Shown piece after piece: positions 9,204 to 29,129 of a stretch of DNA of 64,000 nucleotides (positions are counted from its first letter, which is position 1; the number at the start of each line of letters is the position of its first letter). The translations under genes and the position numbers were made by a program. The DNA is taken from NCBI GenBank assembly GCA_947177205.1, contig CAMWTO010000001.1:4090-68089 (forward strand), in the 5' to 3' direction. This DNA is from an uncultured Ruminococcus sp. (GTDB taxonomy: Bacteria; Bacillota; Clostridia; Oscillospirales; Ruminococcaceae). The notes beneath the pieces are model-generated. The model saw only the letters and a program-made list of their open reading frames with translations. It was not told the origin of the DNA and did no database searches.

Positions 9204-10521
9204 ATTAAAATTAAAAAATTATTTCAAAATATCCGGGATCGGTCTGGCAGTTATTTTACTCTGGAGTATGCTGTTGTCAATGGGATCAATGACCCCAGCG
9301 TATGCCGAAAATTCCGGCGATTCTGAGAATTCCCAGAATCCGGGAGAGATTATTTCTCTCCCGAATGGATATTCAGAAGACGGACTGTGGCTCTATAATG
9401 ACTACGGCGACGGAACGGTTTCTGTCACCTGTCAGGACAATACGATCACGGAAGCTGAAATCCCGGCGGAAATTGACGGACATGTCATTACAATGGTAGA
9501 AGTGGACTGTTTCAAGGATAATCCGGGACTGAAAAAAGTCACGCTCCCGGACACGATTACAGTCATTGAAGATTATTCATTCTATCAGTGCTATGGACTG
9601 GAAGAAATCAACATCCCGGAGAGCGTGACAAAAATCGGATTTCAAGCGTTCTATGGCTGTGCGCTCCGAGATGTTATCATTCCGGCAGGCGTAACGGAAA
9701 TTGAAAATTTCGCATTCGAGGGCTGTAATTCCCTGCAAGCCATTCACGTCAGCAAGGTCAATCAGAATTATCTGGATCAGGACGGCATTTTATTTGATTA
9801 TGACAAAACAGCATTGATTGTATATCCCAGTGCGAAAACAGATACCAGTTACACCGTTCCGGAGAACTGTACCAAATTAGAAAGTTACGCATTCATGGGA
9901 AATCAGTATCTGGAGCAGATTGATATTTCTTCCGTGCAGGAAATCGGCGAAGATGTATTTTATTACTGTACCAGTTTGCAGGAGATCACAATCCCGGACG
10001 GCATCACGGAGCTGAAAGGTTCAGCATTCGGCAATTGCGTGGCATTGAAGAAGATCACGCTTCCGGAGGGGATTACGAATCTGGGATCAGGATGTTTTTA
10101 TAATTGCGTCATGCTGGAAGAAATTCAATTACCGGAATCACTCACAGGAATGAATGATTATGCGTTTTTTAACTGCGGATCTCTGAAACGTCTAACAATC
10201 CCGGAGAACGTGACGACAATCGGCAATTATGCGTTAGGCTGGTACTATGGCAATGATAACAGCAATAACAACAGCAATGCCGGAGATGAGAACAGCAAAC
10301 AGGATGATTACAAGCGACTTCCGGATTTTGAAATTGATGCAGATAACGGCACAGCAGCATTCGAGTATGCCGCCAAAAATAGTATCAAATGCACCGGCGG
10401 TATTACGCAGGGAATTGTATTTATCTATATTGTGCTTGGTGTGGTTGCCCTGGTAATTTTGGCAGTCATCGGGCTTGTCATCATGCAGAAACGCTACCAG
10501 AAAGAACATGAATTAAATTAA
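9190..10521 (+). CDS. BspA-type LRR surface protein, C-terminal TM anchor (paralog 2)
   Basis: Signal peptide ..GIGLAVILLWSMLLSMGSMTPAYA, then an ENSGDSENSQNPGE linker. AEIPAEIDGHVIT motif shared with paralog 3. C-terminal TM helix plus QKRYQKEHELN. The start overlaps the paralog 1 stop by 14 nt. Confidence 0.75.
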   Translation: MRKTKLKLKNYFKISGIGLAVILLWSMLLSMGSMTPAYAENSGDSENSQNPGEIISLPNGYSEDGLWLYNDYGDGTVSVTCQDNTITEAEIPAEIDGHVITMVEVDCFKDNPGLKKVTLPDTITVIEDYSFYQCYGLEEINIPESVTKIGFQAFYGCALRDVIIPAGVTEIENFAFEGCNSLQAIHVSKVNQNYLDQDGILFDYDKTALIVYPSAKTDTSYTVPENCTKLESYAFMGNQYLEQIDISSVQEIGEDVFYYCTSLQEITIPDGITELKGSAFGNCVALKKITLPEGITNLGSGCFYNCVMLEEIQLPESLTGMNDYAFFNCGSLKRLTIPENVTTIGNYALGWYYGNDNSNNNSNAGDENSKQDDYKRLPDFEIDADNGTAAFEYAAKNSIKCTGGITQGIVFIYIVLGVVALVILAVIGLVIMQKRYQKEHELN

Positions 10522-10554
10522 TTTTTAATATATGCTGAAAGGAGCATGGTTAGA

Positions 10555-10686
10555 ATGGATAATGATTTAAAATTAGATCCATTTTACAGCGTTTCCAATA
10601 TGAATGCTCTTAACGAAAGTATTGTGCAAATGCAGCAGGGCAAAACTATGACTAAGACTATGGAAGAATTGGAAGCAAATGCATAA
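10555..10686 (+). CDS. small orphan ORF resembling the C-terminal tail of a type II antitoxin (possible gene remnant)
   Basis: 43 aa (46 aa from ATG 10546): MDNDLKLDPFYSVSNMNALNESIVQMQQGKTMTKTMEELEANA. The DPFYS..N...L..SI.Q...GK pattern recalls Phd/YefM- or RelB/DinJ-type antitoxin C-termini. GAAAGGAG RBS at 10537-10544. AT-rich. No N-terminal DNA-binding part and no toxin ORF nearby. Confidence 0.3.
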   Translation: MDNDLKLDPFYSVSNMNALNESIVQMQQGKTMTKTMEELEANA

Positions 10687-10731
10687 AAAAGGCTTTTGAG
10701 AAATATTTTTAAAATTCCAGGAGGTGTAATT

Positions 10732-11853
10732 TTGAAATTTTTAAAAAAATTATCCGGCGTTGTCCTTGCCGGGATGCTGTGTGTGCCGTTATGTGCAGTA
10801 TTTCCGGAAAATCCAGTTCATGCGGAAAATTCCGGGGATTTTGCCTATCAGGTCAGGAAAGACCAGACGGCGGAGATTATCTGTCAGAATCCGGATATTG
10901 TCCGGGCGGAAATTCCGGCGGAGATCGACGGTCATCCTGTAACGGCACTCGCTGAGAACTGCTTTGCCCAGTGCGATTCCATGACAGAAGTCATCATTCC
11001 GGATACGGTCACAAAATTGGGAGATTATGCATTTTTTGGCTGTTCGTCCCTCACAGAGATTGCAATCCCGGCAAGTGTGACTGCAATCGGCAAGTACGTT
11101 TTTGATACAACAGAGAGATTGACAAAATTTGAAGTTGATCCAGAGAATCCGTCTTATCAGTCGCCGGATGGGGTACTTTATGATAAAGCTGGGGGGACGC
11201 TCCTGAAATATCCGGAATCCAAGCCGGAGCAGAATTATACTGTGCTGGATAGTTGCCAGACCATTGCAGACTGGGCATTTGTCGGCTCTGTCAATCTGGA
11301 ATCCATTGATTTAAAACAAGTCCGGACAATCGGCGAGGACGCATTCTATTACTGTGTTGCTTTGAAAGAAATCACGATTCCGGAGGGTGTCACGGATCTC
11401 CCCGGTGCAGTATTCGGCTGTTGTGCCGAACTGGAAACGGTCAATCTGCCGTCCGGATTACTGGCAATCGGCAATAAATGTTTTTATTCGTGCGTGTCAC
11501 TGCAAAAAATCAATCTGCCGGAGGGATTGCAGAAAATGGGAGAATACGCATTCTGCCACTGCACGGAACTTAGAGTTTTGGCAATTCCAAAGAGCTTAAC
11601 AACGGTGAATACCAAATGCATGGGGTATCTCTATGACGAGGCATCCGATGATTACACACTCCAGGAAAATATTACGCTCTATGTCTATCCGGATTCTGCC
11701 GCCTGGAAATATGCAGCAACCAATCACATTGCATTTGAACTGATTCGGAATTATGACCAATTATATTTAATTTTAATTATTGTGATTCTGGTGATTATCC
11801 TAGTTCTGAGTTTTGCCATGATTAAAATTCTGAAAGGCAGGAGAGAAGCATGA
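10732..11853 (+). CDS. BspA-type LRR surface protein, C-terminal TM anchor (paralog 3)
   Basis: TTG start at 10732, 7 nt after AGGAGG (10719-10724). Signal peptide KFLKKLSGVVLAGMLCVPLCAVF..VHA. AENSGDF linker, AEIPAEIDGHPVT motif, LRR repeats. C-terminal TM helix LYLILIIVILVIILVLSFAMI. Confidence 0.75.
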   Translation: MKFLKKLSGVVLAGMLCVPLCAVFPENPVHAENSGDFAYQVRKDQTAEIICQNPDIVRAEIPAEIDGHPVTALAENCFAQCDSMTEVIIPDTVTKLGDYAFFGCSSLTEIAIPASVTAIGKYVFDTTERLTKFEVDPENPSYQSPDGVLYDKAGGTLLKYPESKPEQNYTVLDSCQTIADWAFVGSVNLESIDLKQVRTIGEDAFYYCVALKEITIPEGVTDLPGAVFGCCAELETVNLPSGLLAIGNKCFYSCVSLQKINLPEGLQKMGEYAFCHCTELRVLAIPKSLTTVNTKCMGYLYDEASDDYTLQENITLYVYPDSAAWKYAATNHIAFELIRNYDQLYLILIIVILVIILVLSFAMIKILKGRREA

Positions 11854-13361
11854 AAAATTTAAATTTAAGTTTAAATTTAAAAAATAAAATATTTCTCTGG
11901 ATGACAGTCCTGTGTATGATTCTGAATTGTCTGCGTCTCACAATCCCGGCACGTGCGGAACAAACCGGGGAAGAACTGGAAACTTATACAGAGGGAATTT
12001 TTACCTATGCGTATATTGACGGCGGTGTTATGCTTTATTCCTGCGACACGGGAACGCTTGCTGTCAATTTGCCGGATGAGACCAATGGCAGAAAAATTCT
12101 GGAAATTGCAGATGGTGCATTCTATGACTGCAAAAATCTGGAATATGTCCAGATGGGGCGCTATGTCCGGGCAATCGGAGAATCCGCATTCCAGAACTGC
12201 ACATCCCTGAAAGCCATTGAGATTTCTGACAGCGTGGAACGAATTGACCGTTACGCATTTGCCAATTGTCCGAGTCTGACAGAAGTGAAACTCCCGTCGA
12301 ATATCACGGATATTTCGGAAGGATTATTTTATAACTGCATTGGACTGCAATCGGTGGAACTTCCCAAAAATTTGAAAAATATTGGTTCTTCGGCGTTCTA
12401 CAGTTGTAATTTATTTGATTACGGACAGCTCCCGGAGGGTCTGGAGACCATCGGGGATTATGCATTTGCGTTCTGCTATGCCGTAAGCAATGCGGAATTG
12501 CCGTCTACACTGACGGGACTCGGTTCAGCGGCATATTATGGCTGTGTGAATATTCAGGAATTTACAGTCCCGGCACATCTTGAAAATCTCGGAACGCTGG
12601 CATTTCTGGGCTGTGTGAATCTCGCAGAATATTCTGTAGAAGAAGGCAATCCGACATATACCGTGCAGGATGGTGTACTTTATAAAGACAATCAAGAAAC
12701 GCTCTATGCGTATCCGTGCGGCAAACCGGATACAGCATTCACGATCCCGGACGGCGTTGTGACGGTCTATGATGCGGCATTTTTTTCTGCGCCGAATCTG
12801 GAAACAGTCACATTTCCGGCAGGTCTGAAATATATCGGTGCAGGGGCATTTGAGTATTGCACTGCACTGAAAGAAGTCACGCTCCCGGAGGGTTTGGAAA
12901 TTCTCTATGAAAATGCGTTTGCGGATTGCAGTGCACTGACAAGCGTGACGCTCCCGGAAACGCTCCGAGGTGTGGGAGATTACGTATTCTATGCGTGTGA
13001 GTCGCTGAAAGAAATCACAATCCCGAAGAATTGCCGGACAATCGGCGATTACGCATTTGGTTACACGGACGGAGAAGAAACGGACGAAAACGGTGTAGCG
13101 CTTCCGGTGAAGATCGAGGGATTCAAAAAACATACAACGATTAACATTCTCTCTGTGATTTTGGTGATTGCCGGGGTTGCTGTATTAATTTTAATCATTA
13201 TTATTTTAATTAAATTAATCAAAAAAAATCAGATGACACCGGAGGAACATGAGGCACTGGAAGAATCTGAAATCAAAGCAGAAGATCAGCAATATCAAAA
13301 AATTCTGGAAGATTTAAATTTACCTGAAAATTCTGAAAATCATGAAAGCTATGGAGGGTAA
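11850..13361 (+). CDS. BspA-type LRR surface protein, C-terminal TM anchor (paralog 4)
   Basis: ATGA overlap with paralog 3. Signal peptide ..WMTVLCMILNCLRLTIPARA. At least 10 LRR_5-like repeats. TM helix ILSVILVIAGVAVLILIIIILI. Acidic C-terminal tail ending LPENSENHESYGG. Confidence 0.75.
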   Translation: MKNLNLSLNLKNKIFLWMTVLCMILNCLRLTIPARAEQTGEELETYTEGIFTYAYIDGGVMLYSCDTGTLAVNLPDETNGRKILEIADGAFYDCKNLEYVQMGRYVRAIGESAFQNCTSLKAIEISDSVERIDRYAFANCPSLTEVKLPSNITDISEGLFYNCIGLQSVELPKNLKNIGSSAFYSCNLFDYGQLPEGLETIGDYAFAFCYAVSNAELPSTLTGLGSAAYYGCVNIQEFTVPAHLENLGTLAFLGCVNLAEYSVEEGNPTYTVQDGVLYKDNQETLYAYPCGKPDTAFTIPDGVVTVYDAAFFSAPNLETVTFPAGLKYIGAGAFEYCTALKEVTLPEGLEILYENAFADCSALTSVTLPETLRGVGDYVFYACESLKEITIPKNCRTIGDYAFGYTDGEETDENGVALPVKIEGFKKHTTINILSVILVIAGVAVLILIIIILIKLIKKNQMTPEEHEALEESEIKAEDQQYQKILEDLNLPENSENHESYGG

Positions 13362-14017: not shown

Positions 14018-14064
14018 AAAAAAATCTCCCCTGAAAATGCTGGATTTTCAGAGGAGATTTTTAA
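14018..14064. terminator. bidirectional intrinsic terminator at the distal end of the phage-like block
   Basis: A7 - TCTCCCCTGAAAAT (14025-14038) / ATTTTCAGAGGAGA (14044-14057) with one mismatch - TTTTT. Confidence 0.75.
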
Positions 14065-14097: not shown

Positions 14098-15054
14098 TTA
14101 AATTTTATTATAGAATCCGTCCTGGTAGCATGTCAGTTCCGTCCGGAATCCCTGCGGACTGTATACCGCATGGACTTTGCAAAGAATCTGTGCCGGGATA
14201 ATATCCCCGAACTGAATCTGATTTCCTAATTGCAGATTATAAAAGCCATTATATACCAGATAATCCGCACGAAAGCCACGGTTAGAATACGAATTCCGGT
14301 AAGCAAGTGCCAGATCCGGCGCATGACGGAAAGAATTATCAAAATCAATATGCTTATGCCGGACAATTTTTAATCCGGATGCCAGAGAATTTTCTTGCAT
14401 AAATGCGTCCGGCGTGTCGTTCAGCATATCCGACATGTGATAATGGCTGATCATTCGGGAACAGTCCTGCAAAGTGCCGTATTCAAGAACTTCTCCCGGA
14501 GAAAATTCCGTGATGGGATTATTTTCAGGATTCTTTGACGGCTTTAACAGATGAATATGATTTTCCGTCACATACGGATAATGTCCCGTGAGTTTATAGC
14601 AGAAACTAACAACGCCGTCCCACATCGTATTGCCGGATTTGACAAACAGATACCCGGAATCGGGGAAATCCTCGCATGTGATATACGGAAACTGGTAAAA
14701 ATTTTTGATCAGGTCTTGAATTGTTAGATTGCTGTGCAGCCCGGATGGGAGTTCATTCTGTGTGAGAAGCGAAGTGAAACTTTTGGAACGGATTTTGAGA
14801 AATTGTTTCTGATTCCGGAAACTGAACCGGATGGAATCCACCAGACCCAGGAAAATTTCCGTTTCGTCAAGTAATACGGAAATACGGCTGATTTCCCGGA
14901 ATGAAATTTCTTCCGCCGGGAGTGTCGCCGTGACCGTATCAAACGGTGTGTAGATCTCCCGTTCCAGTGTAAATGCAATACAGTCCTGGAATTCCTGATA
15001 ATCCGTATCCGGATCTAAAGCATATAACCGGATTTTCAGATGATTATTCGTCAT
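14098..15054 (-). CDS. phage-like structural protein of unknown role (possibly hub/baseplate- or tail-related)
   Basis: 318 aa from ATG 15054, 9 nt after GGAGG. Overlaps the upstream ORF by 11 nt. Its size and the segment LGLVDSI.F..RN....L.I...S.TSLL are faintly reminiscent of XkdQ/gpD-like hub proteins. This is not a secure call. Confidence 0.45.
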   Translation of the reverse strand: MTNNHLKIRLYALDPDTDYQEFQDCIAFTLEREIYTPFDTVTATLPAEEISFREISRISVLLDETEIFLGLVDSIRFSFRNQKQFLKIRSKSFTSLLTQNELPSGLHSNLTIQDLIKNFYQFPYITCEDFPDSGYLFVKSGNTMWDGVVSFCYKLTGHYPYVTENHIHLLKPSKNPENNPITEFSPGEVLEYGTLQDCSRMISHYHMSDMLNDTPDAFMQENSLASGLKIVRHKHIDFDNSFRHAPDLALAYRNSYSNRGFRADYLVYNGFYNLQLGNQIQFGDIIPAQILCKVHAVYSPQGFRTELTCYQDGFYNKI

Positions 15055-15439
15055 GTTCAGATTCCTCCGCCGGCAGGACTGGTTTTTGATTGCAGTAGAA
15101 AACAAGCGAAATATCCGGCATTTCAGAATTTTCCCCGACTGTGAAACTGCAAAGCATCGCACCGGGGAACGTCAGATTCCGGATTTGCAGATTTTCCGGA
15201 TGTAGCATTCTGCCGGATAATGTCGCAATCACCTGATCCGGAGAGAGCATCGGCGCAAGTTTTCCTTTTAATTTGAGACGGCTTCCCAGACTCACACAGG
15301 AAGTCAGAATGACATTGCCGTCTACTGAACCGGATTCTTTCAGAGAACTGCTTTGTGTGATTTGATATTCTGACAGATAAATGACAAAATCGCCGATCTG
15401 TACCGGAAAAAAGACCGGATCACAGAGCTGAAAACTCAT
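15044..15439 (-). CDS. phage-like hypothetical protein
   Basis: 131 aa. ATGA overlap with the upstream ORF at 15436-15439. No family recognised. Confidence 0.5.
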   Translation of the reverse strand: MSFQLCDPVFFPVQIGDFVIYLSEYQITQSSSLKESGSVDGNVILTSCVSLGSRLKLKGKLAPMLSPDQVIATLSGRMLHPENLQIRNLTFPGAMLCSFTVGENSEMPDISLVFYCNQKPVLPAEESEHDE

Positions 15440-15861
15440 GTTTCCACCTCCTGGGAAACAGGATTTTCCGGCAGATACAGCCCACGCAGACGAAATAATC
15501 CGCTATAAACAAGTTTCTGGAGTCGGGTGTCGGCTTTGGGAGCATCCGTCTGCATGGATTCAAGATGACATCCGGCACGGTGCATCCGGGGGACAATCTT
15601 GCTATAGAAAAATTCCAGGACATGTTCACTTGGCGTTGTCATGGGCACAAGCACAGACACCCGGAAATCCGCTGTAAAACTGGAAATTGTCCTGGTAATT
15701 TCACGGGCACAGCAGTTTAATTTGATCGTTTCCGGAGCAAGTACCACGAACAACTGCCGGGATTTTTCCCGGACAGGGACGGCATCAAAAGACGGATAGA
15801 CCTGAAAATTTGTATCATCCGCTTTCAGGATTGTCATTAATTCCTGAATAAGACTTTCCAT
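15436..15861 (-). CDS. putative head-tail joining / head-completion protein
   Basis: 141 aa. N-terminal pattern L...L...L..D.....VYP......P......FVVL resembles DUF3168/gpZ-like completion proteins. Positioned after the head genes. Confidence 0.45.
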   Translation of the reverse strand: MESLIQELMTILKADDTNFQVYPSFDAVPVREKSRQLFVVLAPETIKLNCCAREITRTISSFTADFRVSVLVPMTTPSEHVLEFFYSKIVPRMHRAGCHLESMQTDAPKADTRLQKLVYSGLFRLRGLYLPENPVSQEVET

Positions 15862-15871
15862 GATGTTACAA

Positions 15872-16240
15872 TTACCCCCTTGTAGAGATTAAGAATGCGT
15901 CAGCATTCTGGATCAGATCCCGGCAAAGCGTCTGGTAGGATCTGACAAGTTGCTGTGCGAAACGCATTCTCTGTGCGCTGTCGGATTCTCGTGAAATTGT
16001 CCCGGCATAAGTGGCAAGGCAATTTTCCCTTGCGCCGTGAATTTCCGTGTAACGTAGATTGGCAACAGAAGCAACGAGATAGCAGAGCCGGGTATCAGAT
16101 TCATCCGCATTTTCAAGAAGAACCGAACGGACTTCCTGGATAGATGCCGTCAGGAGAGGAAGAAACTGATCCGGATCGGCTTCCCCGGTGAAAAATGAAA
16201 AGAGCGACGTAATAATATGCAAATTATAATGCATGTCCAT
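15872..16240 (-). CDS. putative head-tail connector (gp6-like adaptor size class)
   Basis: About 122 aa from ATG 16240, 10 nt after AAGGAG at 16251-16256. The track ORF starts at 16261, on top of the RBS. Position and size fit an adaptor; sequence support is weak. Confidence 0.45.
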   Translation of the reverse strand: MDMHYNLHIITSLFSFFTGEADPDQFLPLLTASIQEVRSVLLENADESDTRLCYLVASVANLRYTEIHGARENCLATYAGTISRESDSAQRMRFAQQLVRSYQTLCRDLIQNADAFLISTRG

Positions 16241-16290
16241 GCTGATTTTTCTCCTTTCCATTTATTTCAATTTATTTAATTTAATTTATT

Positions 16291-17124
16291 TTAAGATCGC
16301 TGACGGAAACCGGCAAGTTGAATTTCAACGCCGGAAAGATCCGGTTTCTGTTCTTCCAGCAGGGATTTTTTAAATTGCAGAAGTTCTCTCAGATCCATTC
16401 TTTCGGCTGCGGTCTGGAGCGCCTTGGAAACAGCGCCCTGTCTGCCACAGAGCTGTAGGACTTCTGAACGCATCTGTGTTTCAATTTCAGACAATAATTG
16501 AGAGAATTCCGGAGAATCTTGATTTAATTCCTGATTAAAATTTTGGTCAGGATTTTCCTGAGAACGGAAGTATTTTGTCACACCAGCGCCCACCTGTGCC
16601 GGAACGGCGACAAAGCTCCATTCATAAGCATCCTGGATATCATCCAGAATCACACAGCAATATTTTTCACCGTAATAATTACCCGGAATGTGACTGCATA
16701 CGCTTTCACGCCGGTCTGCACCGCATACAGAACAGATCTGTTTTCCGGCACAGCAGGAAACGCTGACTTCTTTTTTGATTCCGGCATCAATTTCCCGGAT
16801 AAAATCAGAATTAGAATCCGTCCGGATCGTGTAGGCATTCGCTTTCAGAGAAATTAACGGTCTGCCGTCTTTGGTTTTCTGATCCGGTGATCTGACAAGT
16901 TCTGTGTCAAAAATTCTGGCAGTCTGGTTGTTGGATCTGGGATTGTGGTCAAAAATTCCGGTTTTGCCGATAAATAATTTCTGCATCTGTTGCAATGCCT
17001 GGTCAGAAAAGCGTTCCAGATCTCTGTCAATCTCATTATTGCAGAGAATCACATCAAATTGATAGACTTCTTCTTCTTGCAGTTCCCGTCTTGTAAACTG
17101 ATTGATTTTTTCGAGATTGGTCAT
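16291..17124 (-). CDS. prohead protease-like protein with C-terminal coiled-coil (scaffold-like) region
   Basis: 277 aa. The F.V....NE.DRD.ERF....L......F.GK.G.FDHN ... EVSVS ... WSFVAVPAQ.GAGV pattern resembles HK97-family (S78) prohead proteases. It has a Cys/His cluster CC-x5-C-x2-C-x8-C-x-H. The C-terminal 80 aa are helical and charged. AGGAG RBS. Confidence 0.55.
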   Translation of the reverse strand: MTNLEKINQFTRRELQEEEVYQFDVILCNNEIDRDLERFSDQALQQMQKLFIGKTGIFDHNPRSNNQTARIFDTELVRSPDQKTKDGRPLISLKANAYTIRTDSNSDFIREIDAGIKKEVSVSCCAGKQICSVCGADRRESVCSHIPGNYYGEKYCCVILDDIQDAYEWSFVAVPAQVGAGVTKYFRSQENPDQNFNQELNQDSPEFSQLLSEIETQMRSEVLQLCGRQGAVSKALQTAAERMDLRELLQFKKSLLEEQKPDLSGVEIQLAGFRQRS

Positions 17125-17156
17125 AAACAGATAACTCCTTTCAGAATTTTACAGAG

Positions 17157-17178
17157 AGCAGGGGAAAAATCCCCTGCT
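17157..17178 (-). other. stem-loop between the capsid and protease-like genes
   Basis: AGCAGGGG (17157-17164) / CCCCTGCT (17171-17178) 8-bp GC-rich stem with a 6-nt loop and no T-run. A candidate mRNA stabiliser or partial terminator after the capsid gene. Confidence 0.5.
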
Positions 17179-17199
17179 ATGATTTTATGCTTCAAGATA

Positions 17200-18192
17200 T
17201 TAAGAAGAAAACTGGATCATTTTGACAGCATCCGTCATCAGCACCCGGAATCCGACATTGACAGAAATGCCAATGCAATCAAGCTGTCTGTCAATTAATT
17301 TGTCTGTTTCCAGGATCACATCACTGCTCTGGATCTGTTCCAGTGCAAAGTCTGTATCCACGCCAAGCAGAATCGTATCATCCATCTGTGAGCAGTTGAT
17401 TAATTTTGTGCCGAAGGGCAGACGGATTTCCGTCACGTCTTCAGAAGAAGCTTCTAACATCTGATCCATGACCAGAATTTTTGCCATCACACCCGGAGAA
17501 ACTAACAGCGCTTTCATGTTGAAACTTTTGAAATTGCCATACAGTTCTGCCAGATCAGAATATGCAAAATCTTTTGCTGCGACAGTTGTCTTTGTTGCAT
17601 TTGCAGTATTTTTCATGATCACAAGTGCTTTGGCAGTAATGCTTTCAGCAAGCTGTTTGCCGATCCGGCGCAGCATCAGTGCAAAGACATCCAGTCTTTG
17701 CTGACGGACTGCCTCATAGGATGCCTGAACGATTCTTCCGTATTTTTCAATTGTTGAAATATTTGCACTTTCCAGAATGCTGGAAACAGGCATCGCCGTC
17801 CCGGCGGTCGTTGTGCTGTATGCAGTGGTATCTGTCAGCGCACAACCCTGGTAACGATTGGATTCACTCCAGGTGACAGCAGCTGTGATCTCTGGAAGTA
17901 CAGATTCTTCCATGCCCTGCATCACTGCACGGCGGATGAATTCCGGAAAGAGAACAGCGCTTTCCGTTGTCGTGAAGAATTTTTCGACTTTGTCGCAGTT
18001 GACACCGCTGACACGGATATCAAAACGCTTGAGCTGACGCTCGTAAGCGTCCAGTCCGGCAAGGGGCGTATTTTCGTAAGCAGAAGAAGCGTCCGCCTCT
18101 TCCAGAGCCTGCAAAAAGCTCTTGTTTGCCAGATGATACATGCCTTTTTCGAGCTTGACATGATTGAAATTTTCCTGATATTCCTGATACAT
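17200..18192 (-). CDS. major capsid protein, HK97-fold family
   Basis: 330 aa. The central segment EKYGRIVQASYEAVRQQRLDVFALMLRRIGKQLAESITAKAL matches the K.a..i.iS.E...d......i...l...la...d..l signature of HK97-type capsids. GGAGG RBS. Located just after the portal gene. Confidence 0.7.
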   Translation of the reverse strand: MYQEYQENFNHVKLEKGMYHLANKSFLQALEEADASSAYENTPLAGLDAYERQLKRFDIRVSGVNCDKVEKFFTTTESAVLFPEFIRRAVMQGMEESVLPEITAAVTWSESNRYQGCALTDTTAYSTTTAGTAMPVSSILESANISTIEKYGRIVQASYEAVRQQRLDVFALMLRRIGKQLAESITAKALVIMKNTANATKTTVAAKDFAYSDLAELYGNFKSFNMKALLVSPGVMAKILVMDQMLEASSEDVTEIRLPFGTKLINCSQMDDTILLGVDTDFALEQIQSSDVILETDKLIDRQLDCIGISVNVGFRVLMTDAVKMIQFSS

Positions 18193-18252
18193 AGAAAGAC
18201 CTCCATGAAAATTAAAATAAAAATTAAAAATAATTTTAAACTTAAAATTATT

Positions 18253-19413
18253 TTAATTCTCCTGAATCGGCAGATTGTTTTCTTTTTCCAGAACGTCTGC
18301 CTGTGCGTTCCAGAGTCTTGCCTGTGCAAGCTGTACTTCATCCTGGAGACTGATATGATCCCAGACGACCTGAACTTCACAGCATTTTCCGGCTAATTGC
18401 AGATACATCCTGACAATTTTTAAAATCACAGGGTCTAATAATCTGCGATAATATTCCAGTTCAGACGTCAGAATATCTGCCTGTTGTGCGGACATGCGTT
18501 CGGTAGATGACCAGTTGAGCCCTAACAGAAATGGCGGAATAGATAATTTAGAAATAATCTGTTCCAGGAGCTGCCGGACGGGGATTTCTGTTGATGGCAT
18601 TTCGCTTTCAGCACCGATCACACGAATATCAATATCCCCAACAGAAACAAAATCCCGGACTTCGCCGTATCTTGCCGCCTGCATCCCGGCAGACCATTCC
18701 GCAGCGATTGCCTCGGCACGTTCCCTGGCATACGCCATGTCTCCGGGATCAGATGACGGCTTGTAAGTGACAGCGTAACGGACATTGCCGGCACGGTCGA
18801 AATTCTGACCGATGCACTCATAAATTCTCAGAAGAATTTCAGAGAATGCCGGGAGACCCTGGAGCAGAGAAACGCCGTAGATACCGCCGGGAGGAGGCTT
18901 GAGTGCGGAGAATAGAATCCGTTCCGGGTGTTTAAGAAGCATTTCGCCGTTTGCATTCCGGACGAAGAATTTTTTTTCAAATGGTGCATTTCCGGGACGA
19001 ATGATCAGATCCGGCGCACAGGCATTCCAGAGACCAACAATGCAGGAATGTTGCCGGTCCATGACGATTTCCCCGGCGGCATTGCCATAGACAAGCAAAC
19101 TATCCAGATAGCAGTCCAGGAAATTATAAATAGATTGTCCAGTGAAACCAACAGGGACATCTCTGAGAAAGCGATCCAGATTTTTTTGTTGTCCGGGATC
19201 ACTGCACACCACTTGAAAAGAGCCCGTCAAGCGGATTAATTTTGCAATTGCGGCATCAATAATGGGAACAGTCCTGCGGATTTTGTCAAACAGATCATAC
19301 GCATAGAGCTGGACGAGGAAATCTTCCGGCTTGTGGATGCCGACAGTCTGGACGGCAGGGACAGTGCACTGATCTGATTCAAAATTTAATTTTTTTGAAT
19401 TTCCTGAGTTCAA
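18253..19413 (-). CDS. phage portal protein
   Basis: 386 aa with a TTG start after GGTGA. Its position between large terminase and capsid, its size, and the ..LDSLLVYGNAAGEIV.. segment are typical of HK97-type portals. Confidence 0.7.
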   Translation of the reverse strand: MNSGNSKKLNFESDQCTVPAVQTVGIHKPEDFLVQLYAYDLFDKIRRTVPIIDAAIAKLIRLTGSFQVVCSDPGQQKNLDRFLRDVPVGFTGQSIYNFLDCYLDSLLVYGNAAGEIVMDRQHSCIVGLWNACAPDLIIRPGNAPFEKKFFVRNANGEMLLKHPERILFSALKPPPGGIYGVSLLQGLPAFSEILLRIYECIGQNFDRAGNVRYAVTYKPSSDPGDMAYARERAEAIAAEWSAGMQAARYGEVRDFVSVGDIDIRVIGAESEMPSTEIPVRQLLEQIISKLSIPPFLLGLNWSSTERMSAQQADILTSELEYYRRLLDPVILKIVRMYLQLAGKCCEVQVVWDHISLQDEVQLAQARLWNAQADVLEKENNLPIQEN

Positions 19414-19463
19414 AAGCTTACTTCACCTCGGTATTTTATTTTTTAAATTTTTAATTAAATTAT

Positions 19464-20708
19464 TTAGCGCTTTACGCTCAGTGCGACAAACGGGTCCTGT
19501 GTTTTGTACAGAACGGTGCTGACAAAATAGCGCATATCGTCCATTGCATGATCGAATTCTTTCCGTGGTGCATCTCCGATGCTGTCCGTATTCCAGCAGT
19601 ATTGGGTGAATTCCCGGAGTGTGTCAGCGCAGGAACTGTGAAATTTGATTTGTTCCAATCGGAGCGCATTGCTCACAAACCGGATACCGGACAGGACATC
19701 ATTTCTGGCTTTGATGACTCGGAATTTCTGATGGGAGTGAATGCAGGCGATGAAACTTGCCGCTGACGGATCGACAATCACAGCGTCGATTTTCAAAGAG
19801 CCGGCGAGTAATTCCAGTGCCGTATAATGTTCTTCGTCGGTTCTCTGGATGCCCTCACGGCGGGAATCGAAATAATATTCCCGGATTCTGTACCAGATCC
19901 CGTCAGATTCTCCCCAGAGTCCCATGGAAGTCGGATTGACTGTCCCGTAGTCGCAAGAGATGAAATAGCGCTGACATTCCGGAATTTTGTCCACGACATG
20001 AATTGCCTTGCTGAACATCGGATAGACAACACCCTCCGAAACAGTCCACTTTCCGAGAATAAATCTATCATAGAACACACCGCCGTAAGTTCTGGCATAG
20101 CGTTCCCGGACAGATTCTGACAGAGACGGATTGTCCTTCATGGTAAAATGCAGATATAATGCATGTTTCTGTTCGGCTTTTTTAATCCATTCCAGATAGA
20201 ACCAGTGATAAGGATGTTCGGGATTGCAATTAAACCAGAGTTTCGCATGATCCACGGAACATCTTGCAAGTGCCTGTTCTACGAAAGATCTTGGCATAAG
20301 AGCAACTTCATCCAGAAGGACGCCGGAAAGTGTCATGCCTTGGATCATGGAAGCAGAACTTTCATCCTTACCGCCGAACAGGTAAAAGCGATTGGTATGA
20401 TGATAAACCGTAACGTCAATATAATGCTTGCTGAGAGATTGACGAACGGAAAAGCCAGCGGATTCCAGAACCGAAACAAGCGGTCTGATCAGGTTTCTTT
20501 CTACGGAAGTGATTGTTTTGCCGCACATGGCAAGCGATGCATGATTCCAGGTGACCATTGCCCAACATACGAATCCCAGGGACATGGACAGCGTTTTGCC
20601 GCTCCGGACAGCGCCATCACAGATCAATGCATCATACTGAGCGTATGCCGGGAGCGCCCACCATCGAAGCGCAAGTTTTTGTTTGGGAGAAAATTTTTGA
20701 AATTTCAT
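19464..20708 (-). CDS. terminase large subunit (PBSX/XtmB-like family)
   Basis: 414 aa. Walker A in DGAVRSGKTLS, Walker B-like LLDEV, and a C-terminal nuclease region with D..DPS and HAMDD.RY. ATGA overlap with the small terminase stop. Confidence 0.9.
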   Translation of the reverse strand: MKFQKFSPKQKLALRWWALPAYAQYDALICDGAVRSGKTLSMSLGFVCWAMVTWNHASLAMCGKTITSVERNLIRPLVSVLESAGFSVRQSLSKHYIDVTVYHHTNRFYLFGGKDESSASMIQGMTLSGVLLDEVALMPRSFVEQALARCSVDHAKLWFNCNPEHPYHWFYLEWIKKAEQKHALYLHFTMKDNPSLSESVRERYARTYGGVFYDRFILGKWTVSEGVVYPMFSKAIHVVDKIPECQRYFISCDYGTVNPTSMGLWGESDGIWYRIREYYFDSRREGIQRTDEEHYTALELLAGSLKIDAVIVDPSAASFIACIHSHQKFRVIKARNDVLSGIRFVSNALRLEQIKFHSSCADTLREFTQYCWNTDSIGDAPRKEFDHAMDDMRYFVSTVLYKTQDPFVALSVKR

Positions 20709-21103
20709 GCCATCAGATCCGGCGTTTCAGATTTTTTAAAATTTCCGGAATCATCCGGGATTTGTTCCGGATCTGTAAGCGCCTGAAGCAGATTGTCAGA
20801 AAGATTTTCATCCTGGAGCGCATACTCATAGAGTTTTTCCAATGCTTTCTGTCTGTCGAAGAACTGCACTTCCACGCCGCCGCCCTTGACACGTTTGACA
20901 GAAGAAATGTTAAACAACTGGAGTTTGGCAAGCTGTTCCGGCGGCGGAATATCTTCGGCAAAAACCAGAGAGACAGCGTCATTGATTTTGCCGGATGCTA
21001 ATTTTTTCAGACCATCAATGACAAGATCTTTATCTGACTTTTTTTTATTTTTTCTGGGATTTTTTAAATTCTGCATAGCAGATCGCAGCCCCCTTTCACT
21101 CAT
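20705..21103 (-). CDS. terminase small subunit-like protein (short form)
   Basis: About 132 aa from ATG 21103; ATG 21076 is an alternative. The ..INDAVSLVF...(N20)..ISSVKRVKGGGVEVQFFDRQKALEKLYEY motif matches the C-terminal oligomerisation region of Firmicutes small terminases. The start is uncertain, because the track ORF start (TTG 21133) lies in the loop of the spoVS terminator. Confidence 0.55.
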   Translation of the reverse strand: MSERGLRSAMQNLKNPRKNKKKSDKDLVIDGLKKLASGKINDAVSLVFAEDIPPPEQLAKLQLFNISSVKRVKGGGVEVQFFDRQKALEKLYEYALQDENLSDNLLQALTDPEQIPDDSGNFKKSETPDLMA

Positions 21104-21117
21104 AGGCTGAAAAAAGC

Positions 21118-21142
21118 AAAAAACTGTACGCAAACGTACAGT
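21118..21142 (-). terminator. intrinsic terminator of spoVS
   Basis: Minus strand: ACTGTACG-TTTG-CGTACAGT followed by TTTTTGCTTTTTT. Arms at 21123-21130 / 21135-21142. Confidence 0.8.
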
Positions 21143-21199
21143 TTTTAAAAATTTTTTTTAAATTTTAAAATTTTTTAATTTTTAAAAAAATTAAAAATT

Positions 21200-22432: not shown

Positions 22433-23938
22433 TTATTCGTTTCCGGTAATCCTGGCAATCAGTTCATCAATGGAATTCGGATCAGCCGCAGAAGTTTCAT
22501 AGGGAATGCCCTGTTCCCGGAGGATTTCCTGCAAACTGGCAGGATTTTTCCGGATTGGGCGGCTTTTCTGATTCTGAATTCTACGCAGTTCCTCCCGTTT
22601 TTCTTCTTCCTGTTCCCGGATTCTCTGTGCTTTCTGATAATCCCGGATCGTCTGAATTTTTTGTGTTCTCTGCGCAATTTCAAGTACAGGATCGGGATTT
22701 TCCGGATTTTTGAGAATTTCCGGGATTACCGGACTATCCTGATTTTCCGGAATTGGTTCCAGAACACGGAGCGATTTATGCTGTGGGATAGGCATATCAA
22801 AATTATGAGAATTAGAATTATCAGGAATATTAATTTTTTCCTGATTTTTATTATCTTCATTATATTTATATTCTTCATCATCTTCATATTCTGATTCTCC
22901 CGTGAACGCTCTCACCAGGAAAACAGGCAGCTGCAAGAACAACCCCACCGTGCAGCTCAGGATGAACACCACCAGAACAGCAAAAAATCCTACAATCAGC
23001 AGCATTTCCAATTCCGGGAAATTTTCCTGGATTGACGGCATCAGGAAATCAATGACTACATCGCCGAGCATTAACGTGATGAGTGCGCCGCCGGATGCAC
23101 CGGCAAAAAAACTATGCCGACCGGATTCTCCACGTGCCGGACTGTGGAACAGACCCAGTGTGAACAATGCCGTCAGCAGGGACAATAAACTTGCCATGCT
23201 GTCGAATTGCGGATAATAGAGAAATCCCCGGTCTGTACAGACATATGTGACACAGGCCGTCTGTCCGCCCCAGACAAGCAAAAGCAGAAACAGCCAGAGA
23301 ATTCTGCTGTGTTTTGCGGCATATTCCCGGATGTATGCCCCACCGGCGAAACCGGCAATCGGTGCAAGCATCTTGCACCATTCCGGGAGAAGATAGTCTC
23401 CGGATGACAGGAGCAACATCGGTTGGAGTGTGCTGACAGCAGCGGTAACAACTACAAAAGCAAGCCGGGCATTCCGGGACTGTAATTTCTGAAAAGCGGC
23501 GCCCAGGAACGGAGCGGCAAGCAGGAGCGCAAAATACATGCCAAGGAATTTCGCCGTATCCGTAGCGGAGAACTGTCGGAGCGCCTGAAAGATAATATCC
23601 GGCGTCATTTCCTGTTCAAAAAAGACTTTTCTCAGCAGGAGCGTGCAGAGTGTTGCAATCACATAAATATAACTAAGCCGGAACAGTGGCTTGAACGAGT
23701 GCAGAGAGAATTGCTCGGAAGATTTCACATAGCCTACACAGCTCGCAAGGAGCATCGCACCGGAGAGACAGAACCAGCGCATCGCAATGAAAGGCGCACT
23801 GTCGTATGTAATTGTAGATTCGATAAAACCGGTTTCCCGGATATACTGCAAACCAAGCAGGAGCATCACGCCCAGACAGCTAAGCGCATCCGCACAAAGG
23901 AATCTGCCATGAGAGGATTCTGATTTTGTATCTGTCAA
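22433..23938 (-). CDS. polytopic membrane protein with long charged, low-complexity C-terminal tail
   Basis: 501 aa. The TTG start overlaps the CYTH gene stop (TTGA). About 10 TM segments (acyltransferase-3-like appearance), followed by about 160 aa of acidic/E-N-P-rich and K/R/E-rich tail. Confidence 0.6.
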   Translation of the reverse strand: MTDTKSESSHGRFLCADALSCLGVMLLLGLQYIRETGFIESTITYDSAPFIAMRWFCLSGAMLLASCVGYVKSSEQFSLHSFKPLFRLSYIYVIATLCTLLLRKVFFEQEMTPDIIFQALRQFSATDTAKFLGMYFALLLAAPFLGAAFQKLQSRNARLAFVVVTAAVSTLQPMLLLSSGDYLLPEWCKMLAPIAGFAGGAYIREYAAKHSRILWLFLLLLVWGGQTACVTYVCTDRGFLYYPQFDSMASLLSLLTALFTLGLFHSPARGESGRHSFFAGASGGALITLMLGDVVIDFLMPSIQENFPELEMLLIVGFFAVLVVFILSCTVGLFLQLPVFLVRAFTGESEYEDDEEYKYNEDNKNQEKINIPDNSNSHNFDMPIPQHKSLRVLEPIPENQDSPVIPEILKNPENPDPVLEIAQRTQKIQTIRDYQKAQRIREQEEEKREELRRIQNQKSRPIRKNPASLQEILREQGIPYETSAADPNSIDELIARITGNE

Positions 23939-27231: not shown

Positions 27232-27234
27232 AAA

Positions 27235-28686
27235 TTAATACGCCTTTCCCCAGAGAACCATGTGTTTTGCGGGTTTTCCACAGCAGACACAAGTATCTGA
27301 AATCTGTTTCTGTTCAAACGGAATGCATCTTGAACCTGCACCGGTCTGCGCCTTGACTTCATCCTCGCAGGATTCCTCACCGCACCACATTGCTTCGATG
27401 AATCCGTCGCCTTTTTCAGCAAGCGCCTGATTGATTTCATCAATGGTACGGCACTGGTATGTTTTGTTCTTTCTGTTCTCCAGTGCAGCCGTATATAATC
27501 CGTCATGGACTTCCTGCAATTTGGATTTTACGCTTGTCACAAGATCATCCAAAGAAATGGTTGTCTTTTCAGAATTGTGACGTGTTGCAATGACGCACTG
27601 ATTTGCGGCAATATCACGAGGACCAATCTCGACACGAACAGGGACGCCCTTCATTTCGTATTCGGCGAATTTCCAACCGGGAGAATTCTCGGAATCATCC
27701 AGTTTGACACGGATTCCGGCATTTTTTAATTCCTGATAGAGTGCATTTGCTTTTTCCAGGACACCTTCTTTGTGCATTGCAGCCGGCACAATCACGACTT
27801 GAATCGGCGCAATTGCCGGAGGAAGAACTAAGCCATTATTGTCACCGTGTGTCATAATGATTGCGCCGATCAGTCTTGTTGTCACGCCCCAGCTTGTCTG
27901 ATGAGGAAATTCCAGCGTGTTATTTTTGCCGGCGAACTGGATGTTAAATGCTTTGGCGAATCCATCCCCGAAGTAATGGGAAGTACCAGCCTGGAGCGCC
28001 TTGCCGTCATGCATGAGTGCTTCAATTGCATAAGTAGACACCGCACCGGCGAATTTATCGCTTTCGGTTTTTTTGCCCTGAACGACAGGCATTGCAAGGG
28101 AATTTTTGCAGAATTCTGTGTAGATATTCAGCATTCTTTCTGTTTCTTCAATTGCTTCCTCGGCAGTCGCATGGATCGTGTGCCCCTCCTGCCAGAGAAA
28201 TTCACGGGAACGCAGGAACGGTCTTGTGGTTTTTTCCCAACGAACGACATTCACCCATTGATTGTATAATTTGGGGAGATCCCTGTAGGAATGGACGGTC
28301 TGTGCATAGTGTTCGCAGAACAGCGTCTCAGAAGTCGGACGGACGCAGAGCCTTTCTTCAAGTTTTTCCGTACCGCCGTGCGTGACCCAGGCAACTTCGG
28401 GAGCGAATCCTTCGACGTGATCCTTTTCTTTCTGGAGCAGAGATTCGGGAATGAACATCGGCATGCACACGTTTTCATGTCCGGCTTCCTTGAACATGGA
28501 ATCCAGAATTTTCTGGATATTTTCCCAGATCGCATAACCGTAAGGACGGATCACCATACAGCCCTTGACGCTGGTGTAAGCAATCAGTTCTGCTTTTTTG
28601 ACAATGTCTGTATACCACTGCGCAAAGTCTTCTTCCATGGATGTAATCGCCTCAACGGCTTTTTTCTGATTCTGATTTTTAGCCAT
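27235..28686 (-). CDS. proS: proline--tRNA ligase (archaeal/eukaryote-like class II form)
   Basis: 483 aa. F..WY......AEL......VKGC.V.RP.G..IWE.I, class II motifs, and a C-terminal zinc-type C..C...C.CCGK..K..V.WGKAY. Confidence 0.93.
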
Positions 28687-29114: not shown

Positions 29115-29129
29115 TAGTTTTATGCAGGA

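Follow-up and report, generated by a model that had tools for sequence, protein, structure and literature searches.

A minimal head, DNA-packaging and stub-tail operon of Ruminococcus chromosomes as a probable new GTA-like element

We describe a 7-kb block of nine phage-type genes, comprising head, DNA-packaging and stub-tail functions, in a window (the whole stretch of Ruminococcus DNA analysed) of 64 kb. The block is an old, vertically inherited and selected part of Ruminococcus chromosomes, as the comparison of orthologous sequences strongly supports. Known here from its genes alone, it is probably a minimal and new GTA-like element, that is, a cut-down and domesticated remnant of the morphogenesis operon of a long-tailed phage passed on vertically with the host. 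The features of the locus are as follows.

21119 to 21146, minus strand: leader hairpin, AAAAACTGTACG-TTTG-CGTACAGTTTTT plus a T-run, with the shape of an intrinsic terminator; doubles as the end of spoVS
20705 to 21103, minus strand: g1, small terminase (TerS), PF03592, lacking the N-terminal helix-turn-helix region
19464 to 20708, minus strand: g2, large terminase (TerL) of the PBSX family, TIGR01547 and phrog_2, Walker A GAVRSGKT
18253 to 19413, minus strand: g3, portal protein, phrog_30703 (8.4e-138) and PF04860
17200 to 18192, minus strand: g4, major capsid protein, PF25209 (1.1e-14) and phrog_3922 (2.1e-61)
17157 to 17178: G+C-rich hairpin in the capsid-g5 spacer, lacking a T-run on the coding strand
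16291 to 17124, minus strand: g5, 277 aa, probable prohead protease, phrog_16951 (function unknown; 1.4e-90)
15872 to 16240, minus strand: g6, about 120 aa, putative head-tail adaptor by position and size only
15436 to 15861, minus strand: g7, 141 aa, putative neck or tail-proximal protein, fused to g8 in distant relatives
15044 to 15439, minus strand: g8, 131 aa, predicted tail-tube/Hcp/Dit-type fold (AF2 and Foldseek)
14098 to 15054, minus strand: g9, 318 aa, predicted baseplate hub with the gp27 / Mu gp44 / protein D / XkdQ / VgrG-N fold
14020 to 14062, minus strand: strong bidirectional intrinsic terminator, a 19-bp stem between an A-run and a T-run, 36 nt past the g9 stop codon

The ORF list and its coordinates bear out the layout given in an earlier note on this DNA: nine co-directional, tightly spaced ORFs on the minus strand between 14098 and 21133, all intact, with overlaps of 4 nt at 20705-20708 and 15436-15439 and of 11 nt at 15044-15054. 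The strong terminator described there was also found, and it closes the operon. The G+C-rich hairpin between the capsid gene and g5 is possibly an mRNA stabiliser or an attenuator. As that note had it, the surroundings are of the housekeeping kind: the block is bordered by spoVS and ymdB at one end and by BspA-type LRR genes at the other, and housekeeping genes fill the remainder of the window. Neither the block nor the whole 64 kb contains integrase, replication, repressor, lysis, tape-measure or fibre genes, again in line with the note, which for the tape measure had pointed to the lack of any ORF over 420 aa (the longest in the block has at most 414 aa).

Profile searches support the terminase calls of the earlier note. 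The g2 protein matches TIGR01547 at 7.8e-52 (177 bits, cutoff 105) and phrog_2 at 1e-44, and shares about 50-57% identity with its counterparts in Firmicutes phages; in 53 orthologues, conservation of its Walker A, Walker B and nuclease motifs reaches 95% or more. The match of g1 to PF03592 begins only at position 45 of the 141 in the profile. In the alignment, the N-terminal helix-turn-helix region of TerS is missing in the window's clade and kept in distant clades, R. callidus among them, so that a loss of DNA-binding specificity would not apply to all carriers. For g1, dN/dS is 0.00-0.13.

The portal and capsid calls hold as well. The portal belongs to a family of more than 5,893 clusters, and the capsid protein would be HK97-type by its family assignment. 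Across TerL, portal and capsid, the 53-61 orthologues compared showed no internal stops. For g5, described earlier as resembling a prohead protease or scaffold, profile searches against Pfam and PDB returned no match, and that part of the call therefore lacks profile support. What speaks for it is the position of the gene, which lies between the portal and capsid genes in distant clades, a set of invariant residues (H60, S121 and the cluster C131/C134/C143/H145) and a homologue at the same position, the 'major head and protease protein' of the Flavonifractor phage Cormatin (36% identity, E = 3e-35). Judged by these features, the N-terminal 185 aa of g5 are a probable prohead protease, fused to a scaffold-like helical C-terminal region. 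The low-complexity inserts reported in g5 and g9 are real and, by orthologue comparison, lineage-specific: the linker insertion in g5 is restricted to the window and one relative (L008), and a 4-aa insertion in g9, 'SKNP', is confined to the four closest relatives.

The main correction concerns the tail. The block had been called tail-less, with its last two proteins listed as unknowns; structure prediction and Foldseek, which the earlier note had proposed for them, return tail-type folds for both. The AF2 model of g9 (pLDDT 91.5, pTM 0.89) matches 3d37 in the PDB at 4e-19 (TM 0.69) as well as 1wru, 6v8i, 9g8s and others, with Mu gp44, VgrG and the 80alpha and phiCD508 hubs among the structural matches, and yields 452 BFVD matches at E <= 1e-3. 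We are confident in this model-based assignment of g9 as a baseplate hub. Its family is narrow (433 representatives; full-length members of about 295-350 aa, mostly 300-320), and the protein carries no needle or fibre extension.

The model of g8 is less certain (pLDDT 73, pTM 0.69). Almost all of its top 50 Foldseek PDB matches have the tube fold, at E-values of 5e-3 and weaker and TM of 0.45-0.52; they include Hcp1, baseplate tube-like proteins, phage tubes, SPP1 Dit and RcGTA 6tba/6toa. A tail-tube/Hcp/Dit-type fold can thus be predicted with moderate confidence. In the clade L057-L061 a protein of about 250 aa combines two of the genes: g7 aligns with its N-terminal half (hhalign probability 96.5%, E = 7e-10) and g8 with its C-terminal half (94%, E = 1e-7). 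Additionally, g7 gives a weak hint of the lambda gpU tail terminator (E = 0.17). Profile searches match neither g6 nor g7, the two proteins previously termed connector-size, to any known family, and for g6 no PDB match was found either; g6 has a dN/dS of 0.06-0.32.

A tube-fold protein and a baseplate hub at the end of the block mean that it encodes a head plus the stub of a long-tail-type tail, which places it among GTA-like elements. The earlier view that this layout matches GTAs no more cleanly than PICIs is not supported. A reading as a PICI fails: integrase, replication genes, att sites and mobility were all looked for and not found.

Two further revisions concern the start of the operon. 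The hairpin taken for the spoVS terminator recurs in 30 species, 25-35 nt ahead of the Shine-Dalgarno of TerS, irrespective of the upstream gene. In its alignment 86.9% of cells are paired, versus 32-55% in slid controls; double changes occur at 8 of the 12 pairs, the observed value was reached in none of 500 shuffles, and RNAalifold recovers an identical helix. On this comparative evidence, the hairpin belongs to the module and is its conserved, covarying cis-regulatory leader. The TTG at 21133, where the block had been thought to begin, sits within the hairpin. A conserved Shine-Dalgarno, GAAAGGGGG, at 21088-21096 precedes an ATG at 21076; TerS would probably start at the ATG at 21103 or, more likely, at this one. 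Transcription would have to get past the terminator-like leader ahead of the operon, and control by read-through, antitermination or a host-supplied non-sigma-70 promoter is therefore probable.

The same nine-gene module was found in about 55 species representatives of Ruminococcus/Oscillospiraceae, including the cultured R. callidus, with one locus per assembly and a span of about 6.7 kb (6.5-7.8 kb). Content and size remain constant down to 24% g9 identity. In R. callidus ATCC 27760 all nine genes are intact across 8.3 kb, and one species (L025) lacks TerL, portal and capsid. Across 12 species pairs, dN/dS is 0.01-0.36 for all nine genes, apart from a single value of 0.53 at very small dS. 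The dS of the module equals that of flanking host genes, its GC follows host GC from 33 to 63% (r = 0.97), and gene neighbourhoods are kept within clades, the window's arrangement being reachable by one inversion.

Such purifying selection and vertical inheritance indicate that a host-level function exists, without indicating which one. They also strongly support the earlier preference for long residence or domestication over a fresh or decaying prophage. That note had recommended comparing presence, synteny and dN/dS across genomes, and the outcome favours selection, with dN/dS not near 1. It had also held that its reading would fall if the genes formed the left arm of a full-length prophage. 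Among 50,697 phage records and in IMG/VR, no full-length phage or prophage carrying them turned up: g9 is absent from the former and is found in the latter only on six short fragments of 4.5-9.7 kb. Phage matches to capsid and portal amount to five contigs recorded as 'Bacteriophage sp.' without verification, and one of these proved on inspection to be bacterial chromosome; there is also one weak portal match in a Microcystis phage.

With the genes retained, the block could build a small head that is filled with DNA and bears a stub tail. Portal and capsid protein, whose families are assigned, together with the g5 protease/scaffold may form a small prohead. In this clade, a TerS without helix-turn-helix and a headful TerL of the PBSX type would load host DNA with no specific pac site; the domain loss is seen in the alignment, and we infer its consequence for packaging. 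Next, g6 would seal the portal, and a very short tail devoid of tube polymer, tape measure and sheath may be assembled from g7, g8 and a trimer of the g9 hub, given the firmly predicted fold of g9 and the moderately supported one of g8. Lysis and receptor-binding functions, if any, would be encoded at other loci, as in RcGTA and FpGTA.

Besides the stub tail, two GTA-like hallmarks are the loss of the TerS helix-turn-helix in the window's clade and the conserved, covarying leader before TerS. The TerS of FpGTA likewise lacks this region, as reported with reference to RcGTA work (PMC12946183). The same study describes a 'very short GTA' pattern, random packaging of about 4.6 kb, in Ruminococcus_C callidus, and names no locus (PMC12946183). 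The module could explain this signal and is the best candidate yet for the genes behind it; the link is circumstantial. A packaged length of 4.6 kb is below the 6.5-8.3 kb of the cluster, so the element could not transfer itself. Against the GTA-like reading stand the TerS helix-turn-helix retained in R. callidus and other distant clades, the lack of lysis and receptor-binding genes in the 64 kb and the deletion of TerL, portal and capsid in L025. In addition, the roles of g5, g6 and g7 come from position and weak hints, the g8 model is moderate with weak Foldseek E-values, and a hub without tube, tape measure and fibres would have no demonstrated route of DNA delivery.

This last point is shared by the rival that survives best, a domesticated particle serving a function other than gene transfer, which we regard as unlikely. 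It could act against phages as a head-based system, competing for the components of an invader or wasting them; it could also be a bacteriocin-like or DNA-release device, or a non-injecting packager like PBSX, which has the same TerL family and does not inject its DNA (PMC12946183). Selection at host level is compatible with any of these, a bare hub without needle, fibres or tape measure leaves delivery mechanistically unclear, and no gene for a receptor-binding protein lies near the block in the 64-kb window. However, intact TerS, TerL and portal with conserved ATPase/nuclease motifs argue for selection on DNA packaging itself, a carrier species, R. callidus, has been observed to package short pieces of host DNA in a GTA-like manner, and Pfam scans of the flanks found no toxin, immunity or defence-type gene in or adjoining the block.

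Still less probable is a capsid-forming satellite (cf-PICI-like), or another kind of mobile element, with self-made heads but with tails and lysis supplied by a helper phage. The module's head and packaging genes without a full tail or lysis genes do recall cf-PICIs, the helix-turn-helix TerS of distant clades could recognise a specific pac site, and GTA candidates and satellites are readily confused, according to a 2026 preprint. Yet integrase, regulator and replication genes are absent from the block and the 64 kb, no att-like repeats were found around the module, and it is present in single copy per assembly, in conserved chromosomal neighbourhoods, with host-like dS and with GC that tracks the host across a 30-point range; its own hub and tube-fold protein also argue against simple plugging into a helper tail. 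A functionless deletion remnant of a prophage, intact by chance, would fit the absence of most of a phage genome and the further internal deletion in L025, but is effectively refuted by the low dN/dS in all nine genes over 12 independent pairs, identical content and size in about 55 species, the stop-free orthologues and the conserved cis-regulatory leader.

Among known systems, the GTA-like module resembles RcGTA and CcGTA as a chromosomal, vertically inherited head-packaging-tail cluster without replication or integration genes. RcGTA-type elements also share a TerS without DNA-binding domain (in the module, that of the window's clade), accessory functions presumably elsewhere and a cluster longer than the DNA pieces expected in particles. 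The terminator-like leader recalls CcGTA of Caulobacter, which is said to be under antitermination control. However, no sequence relationship with RcGTA is detectable. RcGTA has about 17 genes over about 15 kb, including tail tube, tape measure, distal tail protein, hub and 'megatron', whereas the module has 9 genes over 7 kb, with only adaptor-size proteins, the tube-fold pair and a bare hub. Its host is a Gram-positive anaerobe, in contrast to the Alphaproteobacteria of the RcGTA type, and its function is a prediction.

FpGTA of Faecalibacterium prausnitzii comes from the same order of gut Clostridia and is likewise a stand-alone packaging/head operon among host genes, with a TerS reported to lack the DNA-binding domain (PMC12946183). 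Its particles look tail-less or very short-tailed, and fibre and lysis genes lie at a separate locus (PMC12946183). FpGTA I has 10 ORFs over 10.5 kb, packages 8.4-8.9 kb and encodes an N4-gp56-family capsid protein, a Prp-type protease and a podovirus tail nozzle (PMC12946183). The module differs in its PF25209-type capsid, in its protease-like protein and in having a hub of the gp27 type, which is characteristic of long-tailed phages. Judged by these annotations, the two appear to use different gene families.

PBSX of Bacillus subtilis, a defective prophage with GTA-like and tailocin-like traits, shares with the module a TIGR01547 TerL, an XkdQ-like hub fold and a Firmicutes host, and packages random host DNA (13.4 kb). 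It is larger, spanning about 28 kb, and has a complete contractile tail with tape measure and baseplate as well as regulators and lysis genes of its own; none of these is encoded in the module. As a precedent, PBSX illustrates that a phage-like particle may package DNA and yet act otherwise. The cf-PICIs (Alqurainy et al. 2023) likewise encode TerS, TerL, portal, capsid, protease and connectors of their own but only an incomplete tail. They are mobile, att-flanked and equipped with integrase, regulation and replication modules, whereas the module has its own hub and tests for integrase, regulation, replication, att sites and mobility were negative.

Finally, among isolated phages, only the complete siphophage Cormatin (ON453905), whose host belongs to the Oscillospiraceae, was found to carry a clear g5 homologue, which occupies the portal-protease-capsid position. 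Unlike the module, Cormatin has a genome of 35 kb that encodes replication, regulation and lysis functions and an entire tail. No similarity to g6-g9 could be detected in its connector and tail proteins, and it is not among the tblastn matches for portal, capsid or g9. Its late operon, with adaptor, head closure, terminator, tube, tape measure and two minor tail proteins, shows, by analogy, the full arrangement that a module of this kind could have been derived from.

Nine co-directional ORFs on the minus strand occupy positions 14098-21133. Profile searches assigned g1-g5 to families and returned no family match for g6-g9. The ORF overlaps described in the earlier note were borne out by the coordinates, and its capsid and portal calls proved right. 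The genes and the hairpin that precedes them are as follows:

g1, minus strand, small terminase (TerS), PF03592
g2, minus strand, PBSX-family large terminase (TerL), TIGR01547 (7.8e-52; 177 bits against a cutoff of 105)
g3, minus strand, portal, phrog_30703 (8e-138)
g4, minus strand, major capsid protein, PF25209 and phrog_3922
g5, 16291-17124, minus strand, 277 aa, phrog_16951, a family of unknown function
g6, 15872-16240, minus strand, about 120 aa
g7, 15436-15861, minus strand, 141 aa
g8, 15044-15439, minus strand, 131 aa, predicted tube-fold protein
g9, 14098-15054, minus strand, 318 aa, predicted baseplate hub
Leader hairpin, 21119-21146, upstream of TerS

One flank of the block consists of spoVS and ymdB and the other of convergent genes for BspA-type LRR surface proteins. 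The remainder of the 64 kb is housekeeping (ProRS, alanine racemase, SecDF, glycogen phosphorylase, MetRS, NrdR and hrcA-grpE among others), and no further phage-like genes were found there. Sheath, tape-measure and lysis families had no match in the block, whose longest ORF is 414 aa, and neither the block nor the 64-kb window carries an integrase or a regulatory and replication module. The block is a phage-derived structural and packaging cluster within a chromosome, without genes for replication, integration or lysogeny control. We identified no receptor-binding or needle protein in the window, nor any regulator or lysis gene that would serve the expression or release of the module.

BspA-type LRR gene arrays adjoin the module both in the window (3127-3897 and 7848-13361) and in some relatives (loci L002 and L008). 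Low-complexity linkers rich in E, N, S and P occur in several host proteins (e.g., ORFs 25540-27231 and 22433-23938) and are similar to the lineage-specific insert of the g5 linker. Directly after the capsid gene lies a G+C-rich hairpin (17157-17178) that lacks a T-run on the coding strand and may act as an mRNA stabiliser or as a partial attenuator that sets the ratio of capsid to downstream proteins. A link to sporulation through the adjacency of spoVS was ruled out, as this adjacency is conserved neither in orientation nor across clades.

The earlier note had described the block as tail-less, a claim that predicted structures and Foldseek searches overturned. The AlphaFold2 model of g9, built from an alignment of 31 homologues, is confident (pLDDT 91.5, pTM 0.89) and matches baseplate hubs over its whole length. 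The match to 3d37, a Neisseria Mu-like tail protein, reached E = 4e-19 and TM 0.69, and the set 3d37, 1wru, 3cdd, 9ki1, 6v8i and 9g8s spanned E-values from 4e-19 to 1e-13 with TM 0.6-0.7. Other hub matches included Mu gp44, the MuSo2 43-kDa tail protein, T4 gp27, the N-terminal parts of VgrG and the hubs of 80alpha, phiCD508, diffocin and pyocin, and there were 452 viral structural matches, named protein D, gpP, 43-kDa tail protein or XkdQ. Sequence profiles gave no match for g9; its predicted fold places it in the gp27/protein D/Mu gp44 family of baseplate hubs.

For g8, an alignment of 8 sequences yielded a moderate model (pLDDT 73). Its top 50 PDB matches were nearly all tube-fold proteins, with weak E-values and TM 0.45-0.52, including Hcp1, baseplate tube-like proteins, phage tail tubes, SPP1 Dit and the neck and tail chains of RcGTA. 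The most divergent relatives have one protein of about 250 aa ahead of the hub. Its N-terminal half aligns with g7 (hhalign 96.5%, E = 7e-10) and its C-terminal half with g8 (94%, E = 1e-7), and thus g7 and g8 belong together.

The N-terminal 185 residues of g5 are highly conserved, with an invariant His60, Ser121 and a Cys/His cluster, and the C-terminal part is variable and helical. In distant clades the gene lies between portal and capsid. At exactly this position the siphophage Flavonifractor phage Cormatin encodes its "major head and protease protein", with which the g5 product shares 36% identity (E = 3e-35). Because no protease profile matches g5, a protease or scaffold role is something we only infer.

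Further searches with g5-g9 were negative. Profile searches with the g5, g6, g7 and g8 alignments against all PDB chains returned nothing significant, the only hint being g7 against lambda gpU (E = 0.17). Pfam and PHROG scans of 92 individual members of g6, g7 and g8 and 24 members of g5 found no family in more than one member. Hhalign comparisons of the g6-g9 profiles with the adaptor, head-closure, terminator and two minor tail proteins of Cormatin found nothing. Set against the complete late operon of this phage, the module looks like a long-tailed phage morphogenesis operon that has lost its tube polymer, chaperones and tape measure together with all that follows the hub.

We found no full-length phage carrying the module. 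Among 50,697 phage records there was no homologue of g9, and IMG/VR held only six short fragments with it (4.5-9.7 kb). The capsid occurred in only five unverified gut contigs among "phage" records; the same contigs gave portal matches, and one further, weak portal match came from a Microcystis phage. The portal belongs to a very large family (more than 5,893 clusters at E <= 1e-10), and its members often carry the name "serine/threonine protein phosphatase" in NCBI annotation (e.g., P0052, P0056 and P0138). Three records from human faeces deposited as "UNVERIFIED: Bacteriophage sp." (L062, MT835508.1; L070, MT835769.1; L071, MT835952.1) contain sister modules with TerS, TerL, portal, a g5-like protein, capsid and small proteins. 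MT835508 is bacterial chromosome in which ABC transporter, MCRA and MgtC genes surround the sister module, and it has no g9 homologue; the other two encode a distant hub related to g9 at 23-24% identity. The GC content of the three records (43-62%) suggests that they come from several host lineages.

With one genome scanned per species, the g9 family was present at 55 loci, all from Ruminococcus/Oscillospiraceae except for two MAGs labelled Alistipes. Carriers include the cultured R. callidus ATCC 27760 and Ruminococcus sp. XPD3002. The two exceptional MAGs (L043 and L054) bear a Bacteroidota label, yet their flanking gene clusters are common to Ruminococcus-labelled loci; mis-binning or mislabelling is likely. 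Almost all loci have the same nine genes in the same order over 6.5-7.8 kb, and identity to the proteins of the window is 60-96% for TerL and as low as 24% for g9.

All nine genes show dN/dS of 0.01-0.36 across 12 independent species pairs, and in the same pairs the flanking host genes have dS equal to that of the module genes. TerL, portal and capsid are free of internal stops in 53-61 orthologues, and the Walker A, Walker B and nuclease motifs of TerL are at least 95% conserved. Neighbourhoods are kept within clades; in a large clade the order is aroA-MBL-rlmH-radical SAM, module, convergent spoVS-ymdB, from which the arrangement in the window is derivable by a single inversion of the module together with the LRR block. 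The GC content of the module follows that of the host from 33 to 63% (r = 0.97), and a search for att sites at the flanks gave no direct repeats beyond imperfect ones at chance level. The only clear degenerate copy, in one species, is L025 (7600-10900), which has lost TerL, portal and capsid and has TerS directly next to a g5 fragment.

These data strongly support the domestication proposed in the earlier note, with the module as an old resident kept under selection and passed on vertically over the long term in about 55 species. That note had also named two outcomes that would speak against it, namely a recent deletion derivative of a prophage with dN/dS near 1 and wrong structural calls. Given the selection, the co-divergence with the host, the missing phage relative and the profile calls, neither of them applies.

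The hairpin at 21119-21146, earlier taken for the spoVS terminator, turned out to be part of the module. It recurs in front of TerS in 30 species, irrespective of which gene lies upstream, and is followed at a distance of 25-35 nt by a conserved CTATKAGTGAAAGGAGG and the TerS start. Its core, tTGYAC-loop-GTRCAa, is preceded by an A-run and followed by a T-run. In the alignment of these 30 loci (A9), 86.9% of cells were paired versus 32-55% in slid controls; double changes occurred in 8 of 12 pairs, none of 500 shuffles reached the observed value, and RNAalifold recovered the same helix. Two pairs (G:C and A:U, columns 21:34 and 23:32 of the alignment) are invariant, which means that the hairpin may also serve as a palindromic protein-binding site. 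A search of Rfam returned no family for the leader or for either terminator. An R. flavefaciens-like clade (L041, L043 and L053) has a different conserved leader, ACAACGGTTTT ... CCCCTTATGAACGG.

At many loci the upstream gene's own terminator lies just before the hairpin, so that in the loci read a sigma-70 promoter would have little or no space. Such a promoter between the hairpin and TerS was ruled out too, for lack of space in the loci read. Taking the 3' arm as a -35 element with TATTAG as the -10 was likewise rejected, since this would imply a 19-nt spacer and put the transcription start within the Shine-Dalgarno sequence. A conserved terminator-like leader with little room for a promoter suggests that expression is gated, and it would probably need read-through or antitermination.

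The conserved Shine-Dalgarno sequence places the TerS start at ATG 21076, a likely assignment. TerS of the window's clade (98-132 aa) starts just after the position of the helix-turn-helix region; in the TerS alignment (A7) it matches Terminase_2 only from profile position 45-61, and this N-terminal region is missing. Distant clades (L043-L062), including R. callidus, keep the region and have a TerS of 160-220 aa. The window and its clade thereby appear to share an RcGTA-type feature, a TerS without its DNA-binding region. Loss of this domain has been described for the Faecalibacterium GTA, FpGTA, with reference to RcGTA work (PMC12946183).

Sequencing of intact DNA molecules from gut virus-like particles placed GTA-like packaging mainly in Ruminococcaceae and Oscillospiraceae and found such packaging of short host DNA to be the commonest route of bacterial DNA into human gut virus-like particles (PMC12946183, Nat Commun 2026). 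The same study assigned a "very short GTA" signal of about 4.6 kb, with random packaging, to Ruminococcus_C callidus with no locus named, and identified the underlying gene cluster for Faecalibacterium only. In the cultured type strain R. callidus ATCC 27760 (L047), we found all nine genes intact at about 27,155-35,432 of NZ_CP186925.1, in a rearranged order that puts capsid and g5 behind g9 (TerS, TerL, portal, g6, 700-bp spacer, g7, g8, g9, capsid, g5). The spacer between g6 and g7 (L047 8410-9112) is non-coding and holds two copies of a direct repeat of about 95 nt and a terminator-like hairpin. The cluster spans 8.3 kb and is thus longer than the packaged pieces; its connection with the 4.6-kb signal is circumstantial. 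The IMG/VR contig L065 has the same arrangement as R. callidus.

The most likely mechanism, which we favour with moderate confidence, is a host-controlled GTA-like particle. A small head would be filled by a headful terminase of reduced specificity and closed by the adaptor, the tube-fold pair and a bare hub; genes for lysis and adsorption would lie elsewhere. More tentatively, and at slightly less than an even chance, the module would be an independently domesticated minimal GTA of Ruminococcus and its relatives (nine genes, about 7 kb), with a small head, a tube-fold ring and bare hub in place of a tail, and gating by the leader terminator, and would be the source of the approximately 4-5-kb "very short GTA" DNA in human gut virus-like-particle fractions. 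Alongside it stand the sister modules with the same head genes in other gut Clostridia.

A different domesticated function is in our view a less likely alternative. A phage satellite of the capsid-forming PICI type, which would share a capsid-based cluster with the module, is unlikely. Such islands carry an integrase with regulatory and replication modules, of which the block and the 64 kb have none; they are att-flanked, mobile and variable in location, whereas the module has no flanking direct repeats and its conserved neighbourhoods co-diverge with it; and they use helper tails, having no tail genes of their own, whereas the module encodes the hub g9 and the tube-fold g8. That the block is junk, a decaying prophage remnant such as the L025 deletion might bring to mind, is also unlikely given the low dN/dS, the intact orthologues and the restriction of internal deletion to that one locus.

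The GTA-like reading makes the module a concrete candidate for the Ruminococcus packaging locus. On that reading, we know of no smaller GTA-type structural cluster. It shows how far the tail of a long-tailed phage can be reduced, to a hub without tube polymer or tape measure, with all genes under selection. The clades provide a natural series in which TerS can be seen before and after it lost its DNA-binding domain, and the conserved leader hairpin points to how the host may silence the module. With blocks deposited as "Bacteriophage sp." and portals misnamed as phosphatases, such loci are currently invisible to annotation.

The module was not described in the literature that we searched. According to its annotation, the FpGTA I operon encodes an N4-gp56-family capsid protein, a Prp protease and a podovirus nozzle (PMC12946183, Supplementary Data 2). 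The proteins of the window match none of these families, having PF25209/phrog_3922 instead and a gp27-type hub at the end; homology to FpGTA I was ruled out on these different families, which are set apart by the FpGTA annotations only. With PBSX the module shares a PBSX-family TerL (TIGR01547), but it differs from PBSX-like defective prophages in lacking their contiguous contractile tail, tape measure, baseplate and lysis genes. Its terminator-like leader recalls CcGTA, which, by the title of PMC11150451, is reportedly under antitermination control.
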